Positions 9,335 to 35,588 of a DNA stretch of 64,000 bases are shown here, one piece after another. Source of the stretch: Eledone cirrhosa (Eukaryota). The position numbers and the translations under genes are program-made. The notes below the pieces were generated by a model, which was given only the letters and a program-made list of their open reading frames with translations, was not told where the DNA came from and did not search any database. Position 1 is the stretch's first letter; each line of letters starts with the position of its first letter. The stretch spans positions 31,248,001 to 31,312,000 of the forward strand of contig OZ024746.1 of NCBI GenBank assembly GCA_964016885.1. Reading direction: 5' to 3'.

Positions 9335-9353
9335 TAACTTTGAATAACTTTGA
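9335..9353 (-). repeat. Inverted copy of the LINE 3' tail (TAACTTTGAATAACTTTGA)
   Basis: Exact reverse complement of 11580-11598. Confidence 0.95.
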
Positions 9354-11511
9354 TCTTGCACATGTCGACTGGTCCTTCACGCACACTCATACACCCACTA
9401 ACATCAAAAAGTCCTGGCAGACATTTGTGGACACTGTTACAAACATATGTGCTAAACACACCCCATTAAGAACTATAAACAAATCTAAGAGCAGAATCCC
9501 TAGAAATAGAAAAACACTCATCAGAAAAATTAAGAGAACGAACAAAAAAATCAACAAGCTGAAATACTGCCAGCAGCAACACATCAACTTGACTGCCATT
9601 TCATCACTAGAGATTAAAAAACATAACCTCCAAAACAACATAATGTCCCTCATCAACAATCAGAGAAGAGCTGAAGAGGCCTGGGCCATTGAGAAGATCA
9701 AACTCAATCCCAAAGTGTTCTTTTCATTTGCAAAAAAACACAAAATCACTGGCTCTACTGTTGGCCCTCTAATTGATGAAAATGGCACTCTTCAAGACAA
9801 TGCTAAAACCATGGGTGAGATACTGCAGAAACAATACTGCTCTGTTTTCAGCAATCCTGATATGGCCGATCTGGGCTGTATCGGCGATGTTACTCCCCAT
9901 TACACCTTATCGGACATAACGTTTGGCGCCCCTGATGTCTTGGCGGCAATAAAGGAAATCAAGCATAATTCAGCAGTAGGTCCCGATAGGTTCCCTGCTT
10001 GTGTCTTGAAGGCGTGTCAACACCAACTTGCTTCTCCTCTTGCCAATCTGTGGCGGAACTCACTGGATGCTGGATATGTGCCAGAAAACCTTCTATCCCA
10101 GTCTGTTGTCCCAGTTTTCAAAAAGGGAAACAAATCCCTTGCCGTGAATTACCGTCCAATCTCACTCACCTCTCATATCATTAAGGTATTTGAGCGAGTG
10201 GTGAGATCGCGAATGACCCACTTCCTTGAGAGTAACAATATGCTGAACTCCAACCAGCATGGATTCCGTAATGGAAGGGATTGCCTGACGCAACTACTGC
10301 ATCACTTTGATGACATTTTGAGAGCCTTGGGAGAGGGTTCCAACACTGATGTTATCTACCTTGATTTCAGCAAGGCCTTTGACAGGGTTGATCATAACAT
10401 TCTACTGAGAAAGCTGTCCAATATTGGTGTCACTGGAAAGCTGCTGCAGTGGATCAAGAGCTTCCTGTCAAACAGAACCCAACATGTTGTAGTTGAGGGA
10501 GTCAAATCAAGCCCAGCCAAAGTCAGTAGTGGAGTCCCACAAGGCACTGTGTTGGGCCCACTTCTCTTCATCATCTATATTAATGACATCACTGACATCA
10601 TCAAACACAGCAACATTAAAATTTTCGCTGATGATTCCAAGCTCCAAAAGGTCATCAATGGCGTGGATGACCGGATAAGCTTTCAGTCAGACCTACTGGC
10701 TGTTACCCAATGGGCAGAAAAGAACAACATGTTACTGAACGAAGACAAATTCGAACTGATCCACTTTGGAAAAGAGGATGCTCTGAAACTCCCGTACTCC
10801 CTTCCCTCCGGGGAAACTCTCGTGGCATCTAACAACATCAGAGACTTGGGAGTAACCGTGGACAGCAACATAAGCTGGACCACGCATATAAGCAGCAAAG
10901 TTGACATGGCCCGCAGAATGTGTTCCTGGATCCTCAGAACCTTCCAGTCGAGAGATTCCCGCACCATTATCCTTCTCTTCTCTACTTTCGCCCGACCACA
11001 CCTTGAATACTGTTGTCCACTGTGGTCTCCCCACACGAAACAAAGTATCATGAAACTTGAAGCTCCTCAAAGGGCAATCACGAAAAAGATAAATGGCATG
11101 TCAGACCTTGACTACTGGGGTCGATTGGAAAACCTGAAACTTTACTCACTCCAACGTCGCCGTGAGCGTTATATTATCTGCATGATGTGGAAAATGTTCC
11201 ATCATCACTGCCCAAATGATGTTGGCATCGCCTTCAAGATACACCCAAGGCTTGGGCCCCGTGCTATCCGTCCCATTCAAAAATCTAAATCGCAACTCAT
11301 AACAACAATACGGCACAATTATTTCACCTCAATCGGCCCTGCTCTCTTCAACATCACACCAGGACACGTCAAAACAGAAACTGACCACACAAAATTCAAG
11401 AAGTCTTTGGACAAATTCCTCCAAGTAATCCCGGACAAACCACCCACACCCGGATATGTCTCCGCAAACAGTAATTCTCTTCTCGAATGGGCCATGGTGC
11501 CCAAATCCTGA
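9340..11511 (+). CDS. Non-LTR (CR1/L2-group) reverse transcriptase, linker + RT + C-terminal domain; 723 codons open (track start is TTG; first in-frame ATG at 9643)
   Basis: Motifs [95 protein letters not shown]. No APE endonuclease motifs. Confidence 0.93.
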
Positions 11512-11557
11512 ATTGAAAGACTTCGCCAGGTGGTGCTATTAAGTTAGACATGGCCTG

Positions 11558-11598
11558 GGCCAATACTGGCCAAAACATTTCAAAGTTATTCAAAGTTA
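11558..11598 (+). other. LINE 3' recognition stem-loop plus tandem tail
   Basis: GGCCA-ATAC-TGGCC hairpin (11558-11571) followed by (TTCAAAGTTA)2; this layout is typical of CR1/L2 3' ends. Confidence 0.7.
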
Positions 11599-13210
11599 CA
11601 TACATATACATATATATATATATATATACATACATATATATATATATATATACATACATATACATATATATATATATATACATACATATACATACATATA
11701 TATATACATACATATATATATACATACATATATATATACATACATATATATATACATACATATATATATATATATATATACATACAATATATATATATAT
11801 ATATATATATATATACATATATATACATACATACCATATATATATATATATATATATATATATATATACATACATATATATACATACATACCATATATAT
11901 ATATATATATATATATATATACATACATATATATACATACATACCATATATATATATATATATATATATATATATATATATATATACATATACATACATA
12001 CCATAAATATATATATATATATATATACATATATATACATACATACCATAAATATATATATATACATATATATACATACATACCATAAATATATATATAT
12101 ATATACATATATATACATACCATATATATATATATATATACATATATATACATACATACCATAAATATATATATATATACATATATATACATACATACCA
12201 TAAATATATATATATATATATACATATATATACATACATACCATATATATATATATATATATATACATATATATACATACATACCATATATATATATATA
12301 TATATACATATATATACATACATACCATATATATATATATATATATATATATACATACATACCATATATATATATATACATATATATACATACATACCAT
12401 ATATATATATATACATATATATACATACATACCATATATATATATATATATACATATATATACATACCATATATATATATATATATATATATACATACCA
12501 TATATATATATATATATATATATATATACATATATATACATACCATATATATATATATATATATATACATACATACCATATATATATATATATATATATA
12601 TATACATATATATACATACCATATATATATATATATATACATATATATACATACCATATATATATATATATATATATACATACATACCATATATATATAT
12701 ATATATATATACATACATACCATATATATATATATATATATATACATATATATACATACCATATATATATATATACATACATACCATATATATATATATA
12801 TATATATATATATATATATATATATATACATATATATACATACATACCATATATATATATATATATATATATATAAATATATATATACATATATATATAT
12901 ATATATATATATATATATACATACATACCATATATATATATATATATATACATATATATACATACATACCATATATATATATATATATATACATATATAT
13001 ACATACATACCATATATATATATATATATATATATATATATAAATATATATATATACATACATACCATATATATATACATATATACATATATATATATAA
13101 TATATATACATATATATATATAATATATATATATAATATATATATATATATACATACCATATATATATATATATAAATATATATATACATACATACATAT
13201 ATATATATAA
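11599..13210. repeat. (TA)n/(TACATACCA) compound microsatellite, continuation of the left array
   Basis: Same strand polarity and same CATACATACCATATA variant as seen just left of the LINE. Confidence 0.97.
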
Positions 13211-13624
13211 TTACATACATTAAAGATTTGGAGTGATTTAGTAATATAACTTTCTGATAATTAAGTTGGTGTTTGACACAACTTAGATAAAATCGGAGAA
13301 ACAGAGTTGGTTTCTGATCGTTAGGTATCAATAGTTTTTGGCGTTATATTTATATGAGGTTTTGTGACATTCATGCCTTTCTAAATGACATAAATACAGT
13401 GAGTGTTAGATATTACTGACTACTACATGTCTCCTTTACTGGTTGAAACTAACTGTTATTAAGCTAATGAACCAAACACTCTCCCCTGTCCCAACATCTG
13501 TGATTCTCAAGGAGACACTTGGCCCCCAGGGGAGGAATGGAGGACGAATCCAAAGTAGGAAAGAATTGTGTATATTTTGTATATACATACACACATATAT
13601 ATATATATATATATATATAAAAAA

Positions 13625-13817
13625 GAAAAGAAATTGAAAATACAACTGGAGTCTTTTAAGAATATTTATTTACCAGTTTCACAGTTCTTAAGATTTTCAA
13701 AAGTAAATTGAGATGGAGGGTTTGTGTTTCTGACTTTTGAAAATCATAAGAACTGTGAAACTGGTAAAGTAAATAAATATTCTTAAAAGACTCCAGTTGC
13801 ATTTTTAATTTCTTTTC
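13625..13817. repeat. Inverted duplication (~80-bp arms 13625-13704 and 13733-13817) abutting (TA)n; Penelope-like terminal fragment
   Basis: Arms are reverse complements apart from a few substitutions and one short indel; contains a hammerhead-like fold. Confidence 0.85.
13733..13774 (+). ncRNA. Candidate minimal type I hammerhead ribozyme, U3-A8 core variant
   Basis: ACTT-[TTGAAAA]-tCAtaagaacTGt-[GAAA]-CTGG-TA-AAGT. The mirror arm supplies ATTTACTT, complementary to AAGTAAAT (8-bp stem I in the consensus). Stem II is weak. Confidence 0.5.
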
Positions 13818-13955
13818 CTTATATTTTTACCTGTGTAGGACATATATATTTATATGTTTTATGTTAAGTATTTTCGTAAAAAAGGTAAAGGAAAGAAGAG
13901 TGCTATATGTATAGTACAGAGCTATTTAATTACATAATAAACAACACAATATAAG

Positions 13956-34671: not shown

Positions 34672-34736
34672 TATTTCATTATACATATTTCAAGGACACC
34701 AAGTTAAATTATGGTGTGCTTTCATCAGATAAAATA
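34672..34736 (-). ncRNA. Minimal type I hammerhead ribozyme (Penelope-like type)
   Basis: Minus: TATTTTAT-[CTGATGA]-AAGCACACCA-loop-TGGTGTCCTT-[GAAA]-TATGTA-TA-ATGAAATA. Stem I 8 bp, stem II 9/10 bp, near-palindromic stem III, AUA triplet. Confidence 0.8.
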
Positions 34737-34794
34737 TAATATAGAGCAGTTTTATACTGTTGAAAATTGCAAATTTGACTGTCACCACACATTA

Positions 34795-34833
34795 TGAACC
34801 TGAAGACTGCGAAAGCATGAAAGTACTTGTTCA
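34795..34833 (+). ncRNA. Minimal type I hammerhead ribozyme (39 nt)
   Basis: TGAAC-[CTGAAGA]-cTGC-GAAA-GCAt-[GAAA]-GTAC-TT-GTTCA. Stem I 5 bp, GNRA-capped stem II, palindromic stem III GTAC, CUU triplet. Confidence 0.75.
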
Positions 34834-35097
34834 ATTAACACTTAACATTTAATATTCTACCACACTATTTCATTCTAATACCATTATAAATTTTAAAGGA
34901 TTGTAAATAAAACGAGTAAATCAGACAAAGTTGGAATTCCTTTTATTAATATATATATATATATATATTCAGTAATTAGGAGTATTCCAAAGCTTGGTAG
35001 AACAAGTTGTGAGGAAAGTTCTCAACATACATTAAGGTGACTCGACAGGTTGGTAGGGATTCTGTAGTGGAAACACGAACAAACGAGGAGTGTAATT

Positions 35098-35407
35098 AAA
35101 AAAGAGAAATAGGACGAAGGTAAACAGTTACAAAAGGATTTAATCCACGTATTAACAATTGTTTCATCAGAATTTCAGTCCATTATTGCTACACTATGTG
35201 ATAATAGGCAATCAAGAAAGATACTGTAGCATCCGAATTTTCAAAATACAAGTTTGTATTTTGAAAATTCGGATGCTACAGTATCTTTCTTGATTGCCTA
35301 TTATCACATAGTGTAGCAATAATGGACTGAAATTCTGATGAAACAATTGTTAATACGTGGATTAAATCCTTTTGTAACTGTTTACCTTCGTCCTATTTCT
35401 CTTTTTT
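35098..35407. repeat. Perfect palindrome, 154-bp arms (35098-35251, 35254-35407), 2-nt spacer, within a TA-flanked 34968-35407 insert
   Basis: Arms are identical reverse complements when read base by base. Confidence 0.96.
35255..35357 (+). ncRNA. Candidate hammerhead ribozyme, U3-A8 core, long stem II (mirror copy 35148-35250 on -)
   Basis: TGTATT-[TTGAAAA]-tTCGGA..CAGT..ATTGC.CTAT-loop-ATAG..GCAAT..ACTG..TCTGAt-[GAAA]-CAATTG-TT-AATACG; GUU triplet. Confidence 0.62.
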
Positions 35408-35421
35408 GATATATATATATA

Positions 35422-35588
35422 TGGACGTTTAACATCCATTTTTCCGCTAGCATGGGTTAGACGAGTTGTCCCATTGTGTGACAGCGAAATCAGATGACCA
35501 TGTCTTGTTCATACAGGACTGGTTTTGGCATGGTTTCTAAGACTGGATGCCCGTCCTAACGCTAACCATATTTACAGTGTGTACTGGA
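35422..35588 (-). mobile_element. RTE-tailed SINE fragment
   Basis: TTTAACATCCATTTTTCC..GCATGGGTTAGAC...CTGGATGCCC.TCCTAAC matches copies at 51450, 56900 and 59970. Confidence 0.7.

Follow-up and report, generated by a model that had tools for sequence, protein, structure and literature searches.

Insertions of Penelope-like retroelements often carry an inverted, 5'-truncated copy together with a tail of 30 to 40 nucleotides (nt) on one end, and the Naiad and Neptune families prefer (TA)n as a target (PMC8557442). The supplement of that report lists three Octopus Naiads and Hydra-1_Obim with this preference and gives the hammerhead of Hydra-1_Obim at position 2403 of 2507. Palindromic junctions of Penelope have been interpreted as self-priming (PMC3846280). 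The purified Poseidon protein PAc, a predicted dimer, cuts AT-rich DNA and nicks and extends both strands; it initiates reverse transcription internally, at two positions beyond the hammerhead, and this accounts for the tail; hammerhead cleavage is dispensable (PMC11167929). Penelope hammerheads are described with a U3-A8 core, an unpaired base before stem II, a palindromic loop III, and opposite-strand pairs 100 to 700 base pairs apart (PMC4209133). For the human long interspersed element (LINE) L1, 39 loci with an inverted 5' tail, a rare arrangement, have been reported as products of twin or dual priming (PMC2837659), and recently active CR1 and Penelope families are known from Octopus vulgaris (PMC13282606). 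Here, we analyze a 64,000-nt window of the Eledone cirrhosa genome (assembly GCA_964016885.1, contig OZ024746.1, positions 31,248,001 to 31,312,000) containing five sites at which retroelement ends stand back to back and run out toward TA repeats. We found that four of them (sites 2 to 5) are most likely tail-end stubs of Penelope-like elements and that site 1 is a LINE with its tail probably copied into both target ends, both of which are known retroelement behavior.

Most likely, two known routes meet here at one favored target, TA repeats. We consider it probable that sites 2 to 5 are stubs made at TA targets by the Penelope-like elements' own enzyme and that the site 1 LINE is an accident of twin or dual priming, eased by the self-complementary target. 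The units of sites 2 to 5 are as follows.

13620..13732, minus strand: site 2 left unit, a Penelope-like end whose U3-A8 hammerhead was read by hand from the arm alignment; runs into (TA)12.
13733..13841, plus strand: site 2 right unit, with a hammerhead at 13737-13766 followed by a probable one-sided extension to (AT)4.
28146..28212, minus strand: site 3 short inverted arm of 67 nt, ending in (TA)10.
28213..28374, plus strand: site 3 long unit, beginning with the 3' half of a hammerhead and closed by (TA)18; a relative of the left family of site 4.
34541..34756, minus strand: site 4 left unit, high-copy family A, with a hammerhead at 34728-34680 and the long form of the family's end, about 15 nt past the commoner end near 34555.
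34757..34948, plus strand: site 4 right unit, the separate high-copy family B, with a hammerhead at 34800-34828.
34949..34968, no strand: TA tract common to sites 4 and 5.
34969..35252, minus strand: site 5 long arm, family C, with a U3-A8 hammerhead at 35244-35154 (71-nt stem II) and a 127-nt one-sided extension.
35253..35408, plus strand: site 5 short arm, with the same hammerhead at 35261-35351; ends at the TA tract 35409-35422.

The hammerhead motifs, predicted from pattern scans only, are complete at sites 2, 4, and 5 and present as a 3' half at site 3. A strict scan for minimal type I hammerheads gave only two matches in the 64 kb, both in site 4 and pointing apart (chance expectation, 0.025 per window). 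When the pattern was relaxed to accept a longer stem II and, at core positions 3 and 8, Watson-Crick pairs of any kind, all five matches fell in sites 2, 4, and 5, with a chance expectation of 0.04 per window that is optimistic because the pattern was widened after the motif had been seen. Shuffling the site 2 arm produced any hammerhead match in 1 of 20,000 trials, and shuffling the site 5 arm in none of 20,000. The core is of the U3-A8 type at sites 2 (13737) and 5 (35261 and 35244), a motif that the first-pass annotation had overlooked. Rfam reported no hammerhead family in the window at gathering or E-value thresholds, and we rejected its hairpin microRNA matches there as chance. These motifs share with the Penelope minimal type I hammerheads of PMC4209133 the palindromic loop III, the unpaired base before stem II, the U3-A8 variant, and the opposite-strand pairing, and differ from them in the 71-nt stem II at site 5. 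That stem II insert in the predicted hammerhead at 35261-35351 is unusually long and is identical in both arms.

At all four hammerhead loci the units lie back to back with every motif pointing outward, and each has an inverted 5'-truncated partner, from the same family at three loci and from a different family at the fourth. The Penelope-like identity that the first-pass annotation had given to sites 2 to 5 is supported, as is the outward polarity it had described at all five.

Opposite copies of unequal length had also been described, and this held at sites 2, 3, and 5, with the difference lying in different places. At sites 3 and 5, the arms are unequal at their outer ends and meet at a near-perfect center, whereas those of site 2 are unequal at the inner end and probably at the outer end as well. 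The inverted arms of site 2 (13622-13704 and 13733-13820) are separated by a 28-nt spacer; the left unit has a 5-nt deletion in the 3' strand of hammerhead stem I and is 28 nt longer at its inner end, and the right end, probably through a one-sided extension, reaches only (AT)4 at 13842-13849, about 20 nt past the repeat. The palindrome proposed for site 3 at 28143-28282 is real (97%), and its center is a 6-nt palindrome that immediately precedes the hammerhead's 3' half, but the right unit runs on past 28282 to (TA)18 at 28375. This unit aligns with the left unit of site 4 with a score of 95, reached by none of 1,000 shuffles. Directly after the (TA)18 lies a tiny fold-back (28411-28444; 13-nt arms, 8-nt spacer), possibly another very short element end. 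Site 5 is a 98.7% palindrome over 35095-35410 plus 127 unique nt on its left. A frame in site 5 was first read as a DDE transposase fragment; Pfam gave no match, a homologue search gave none from 30 candidates, and the hammerhead reading took its place.

Nine of the 10 outer ends across the five sites adjoin a tract of at least six TA units. The claim that all units end at TA tracts therefore holds except at the right end of site 2, with its (AT)4. Apart from the LINE, 7 of 8 outer ends lie at the edge of such a tract, against 1.2% of non-array sequence, although these ends are not independent and one tract is shared. The tracts at sites 2 to 5 are short (4 to 21 units). The distance from hammerhead to outer end is about 55 to 190 nt (corrected by hand for site 3), the same order as the 85 to 92 nt derived from PMC11167929. 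The outer ends had been taken for retroelement 3' ends; by the Poseidon results in PMC11167929, such an end is an internal start site of reverse transcription rather than the 3' terminus of the RNA. The inner (truncation) ends cluster at the hammerhead. Relative to its core, they lie upstream by 4 and 32 nt at site 2, by 28 and about 42 nt at site 4, and by 8 nt at site 5; at site 3 the truncation falls within the core.

Public reads (4 of 9 runs, compared over 34540-36340, which covers sites 4 and 5) showed that both sites belong to dispersed multicopy families ending in AT-rich targets. The two halves of site 4 are separate high-copy families: they have no similarity to each other (z = -1.0), summed depth in run X2 was 49,000 to 85,000 on the family B half and 0 to 27 on the family A half, and in run X4, 45 contigs pass 34756 into other sequence. 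At most 2 nt (34757-34758) between them are unassigned. Other copies of family A meet TA in 17 contigs at 34543 and in 13 contigs near 34555, where 798 of 1,389 reads end. These two end classes, about 15 nt apart, would represent a one-sided optional extension, of a length outside the 30 to 40 nt published for Penelope tails. In the raw reads, another family A copy folds back at 34659-34663 (86 reads sharing one start, so possibly one molecule). An insertion of B inside an otherwise intact A was rejected, since A's upstream continuation is found nowhere else in the window. Family C is mid-copy, with an X4 depth of about 2,000 to 7,000 compared with about 9 on locus-matching contigs. Its 127-nt extension belongs to the family because read contigs cross 35097. 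At 35409, 38 reads with two different starts pass into another sequence, which hints at a recurring end there. We saw no empty allele: none of the contigs listed bridged site 4 or 5.

These sites resemble the inverted-pLTR Penelope insertions described in PMC3846280, PMC8557442, and PMC11167929 in their inverted 5'-truncated partner, palindromic junction, one-ended extension, (TA)n target, and outer end some way past the hammerhead; the (TA)n preference is also that of the octopus Naiad and Hydra-1 families. They differ in being stubs only, with no open reading frame (ORF) seen, in having extensions of 95 to 127 nt, and in the joining of two families at site 4. Several points weigh against assigning them to Penelope-like activity. 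Pfam found no Penelope ORF in 10 six-frame or partial translations of sites 3 to 5 or in 33 of the 78 other open frames, and four short stub motifs had no match in the published consensus set (PMC8557442 supplement), where line breaks can hide matches. The extensions at site 3 (95 nt) and site 5 (127 nt) exceed the 30 to 40 nt published for Penelope. Minimum-energy folds of the predicted hammerheads lack the full core; target-site duplications are unreadable inside TA tracts; and the read comparison covers only sites 4 and 5.

Structures, polarity, hammerhead motifs, the family status of sites 4 and 5, and the TA ends of other family A copies are direct observations; for the cutting agent, the start sites of reverse transcription, and the joining of the arms at sites 2 to 5 we draw on published work. 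By that analogy, sites 2 to 5 would be 5'-truncated insertions from at least four families of endonuclease-bearing Penelope-like elements, in which an element-encoded GIY-YIG endonuclease would cut AT-rich DNA, reverse transcription would begin at either of two internal sites some 55 to 190 nt past the hammerhead, and synthesis would halt at the hammerhead or shortly upstream. The inverted partner would arise during that insertion, whether the opposite strand was primed in turn or the complementary DNA (cDNA) snapped back on itself, and the two start sites could produce the unequal outer ends. At site 4, this process may have used two different RNAs, or one tract may have received two insertions in succession.

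Site 1 consists of the following features.

1..9334, no strand: large (TA/CA) microsatellite array, the left flank of the LINE, with no G in the 1 kb adjoining the insert.
9335..9353, minus strand: inverted 19-nt copy of the LINE 3' tail (100% over 19 nt), overlapping the LINE body by about 2 nt and stopping exactly at the element's last base.
9352..11598, plus strand: young, 5'-truncated CR1-group LINE with an open reverse transcriptase (RT) frame to 11511, a short 3' untranslated region (UTR), and a tail of two 10-nt units at 11579-11598.
11599..13209, no strand: (TA/CA) array, the right flank of the LINE, with the strand polarity of the left flank.

We provisionally assign this LINE to the CR1 group, in keeping with the first-pass annotation. 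Its frame (9337-11511) is open for 724 codons and contains an RT domain (RVT_1, Pfam). Among named relatives of the protein, the best is one of Argonauta hians (57% identity), and full-length relatives (about 1,000 amino acids, about 50% identity) add an AP-type endonuclease (PF14529) that is truncated away here. Alignments to relatives begin at 9346-9352; thus, roughly the first 17 bases do not belong to the element body. Tandem tails of a similar kind terminate the four closest relatives checked, one of which (L002) shares the 3' UTR too; this identifies the tail at 11579-11598 as the true 3' end.

The segment 9335-9353 is the exact reverse complement of 11580-11598 (chance about 1e-11 per position), and the match ends at the element's last base without reaching into the flanks, which have C but no G on the plus strand over 1 kb on each side, with the same polarity on both. 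A DNA fold-back is disfavored because it would have copied flank, which the match excludes. The RNA-templated origin that had been proposed for the inverted tail is thus supported, and the tail may have arisen when the end of the RNA was briefly copied a second time. The earlier proposal that both target ends served as primers also survives as a plausible route: (TA)n being identical on both strands and the RNA ending in TA, both target ends would be able to prime on the tail, one end would have copied 2.2 kb and the other 19 nt, and the products would then have been joined. As in the L1 insertions of PMC2837659, a 5'-truncated LINE has its own 3' tail, reverse-complemented, in front of it and carries a normal tail at its other end. 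It departs from L1 in its CR1-group affiliation, a 10-nt tandem tail in place of poly(A), a self-complementary TA target, and an unreadable duplication.

The inverted tail was found in none of 80 metagenome relatives, 28 of which showed the 3' end; this is a weak test because most were distant (30 to 54%) and many were cut short. The longest inverted match among them was 15 nt and not to a tail. Five distant RTs from viral contigs were left out of this comparison. In the available data, the inverted tail does not appear to be a general trait of the clade. An internal control is provided by one other LINE of the window.

35423..37008, minus strand: decayed RTE-type LINE with TA on both sides and no inverted tail.

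One of the two TA-bounded LINEs therefore has the inverted-tail pattern, and the window holds six further RTE-type tails, all of them single and with ends that are not in TA.

The first-pass annotation had combined all five sites into a shared new microsatellite repair system, in which spontaneous breaks in (TA)n, arising through cruciforms, are patched by unrelated retroelements primed from both ends without their endonuclease. Outward ends in two element classes, nearly all of them adjoining TA, are what this predicts; TA repeats are reported to be break-prone and mended by end joining (PMC13645644), two target ends that were extended on different RNAs can be joined by L1 (PMC11702581), and the site 1 LINE lies in an array of more than 10 kb, while none of its 80 relatives has a long TA tract at its 3' end. 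We nevertheless judge this account improbable. In four of the five cases a single class is involved, and published work describes both its inverted structure and its liking for TA and ascribes them to the class's own endonuclease, an enzyme that already explains both the TA targeting and the both-strand priming. Furthermore, other copies end at fixed family positions, the tracts at sites 2 to 5 are short, and an inverted tail is missing from the RTE-type LINE that TA tracts flank on both sides, while the other RTE-type tails are single and not in TA. A route common to CR1 and Penelope-like classes would rest on one LINE copy, too little for a general route, with the inverted tail absent from the other TA-bounded LINE and from all 80 relatives. 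We found no specific support for a host repair system acting at spontaneous breaks. Purely DNA-level origins of the palindromes, namely, fold-backs through template switching between TA flanks, miniature inverted-repeat transposable elements, or assembly artifacts, would fit the near-perfect centers of sites 3 and 5 and the long arms of site 2 with TATA at both outer edges. They are very unlikely given hammerhead motifs of one polarity in all arms, a site 1 repeat that stays out of the flanks, arms that differ by 1 to 8%, a family A fold-back in another raw-read copy, and the lack of symmetry at site 4.

Site 4 by itself, with one hammerhead per strand in about 408 nt, could suggest a single viroid-like unit with hammerheads in both polarities. 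This reading was rejected and deserves almost no credence: such a unit would be compact, strongly folded, and copied whole, but the sequence folds no better than shuffles (z = +1.28), and each half is a family of its own that, elsewhere, runs on into different sequence (the 45 contigs at 34756). A much stronger competitor, to which we give about an even chance, is that TA tracts serve as repeated landing pads and that site 4, and possibly site 1, are two independent abutting insertions. Succession at site 4 is favored because four families line up in one tract and the back-to-back arrangement, one of four possible orientations, was seen once; family A also supplies the TATA at its junction, which makes a natural 5' point for joining to a TA tract, and families A and B differ in distribution across runs. 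A one-step origin is favored because the halves, like those of the same-family pairs, have no TA spacer between them, whereas a TA tract parts B from C. Independent insertion also leaves the same-family palindromes unexplained, and a second insertion of just 19 nt exactly at the site 1 junction in a 10-kb array is improbable. As a separate observation, 34497-37020 appears to be one TA tract in which four families (A, B, C, and the RTE-type LINE) settled one after another within 2.5 kb.

The reading we prefer, Penelope-like stubs plus a twin-primed LINE, amounts to ordinary retroelement debris in a TA-rich genome, and its value is as a handle on how Penelope elements build inverted repeats. Same-family palindromes are uninformative in distinguishing snap-back from two primings, but spacer-free pairs of two different families are informative. 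With the inverted tail at site 1, the L1 pattern is extended to a LINE whose tail has a specific sequence, in which the inverted piece can be assigned unambiguously. A bolder proposal, which we think rather unlikely, is that both target ends prime equally well because (TA)n is symmetric; two-end priming would then be routine there, site 4 would be one insertion from the RNAs of two Penelope families, and the site 1 LINE family would regularly leave an inverted tail in TA. If true, Penelope inverted repeats would come from two primings rather than snap-back, by a route common to retroelement classes. A literature search, poor in subscription journals, turned up no paper describing either two-family Penelope pairs or CR1-type LINEs with inverted tails in TA, and a preprint on retrozymes (10.64898/2026.07.22.740005) contributed nothing further.

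Other features of the window are minor. The very long (TA/CA) arrays at 1-13209 and 17749-20971 contain higher-order units of 14, 23, and 25 nt, with a strict one-strand C bias around the LINE. Short inverted repeats occur at 36846-36880, inside the RT region of the RTE-type LINE, and at 58520-58563; neither is at a TA tract. The frame of that LINE at 36245-36889 (minus strand) has a weak PHD-finger-like match after the RT motifs (E = 0.006, below the cutoff). Finally, a mariner-type transposase fragment lies at 14438-14671 on the minus strand (PF01359, E = 4e-9).

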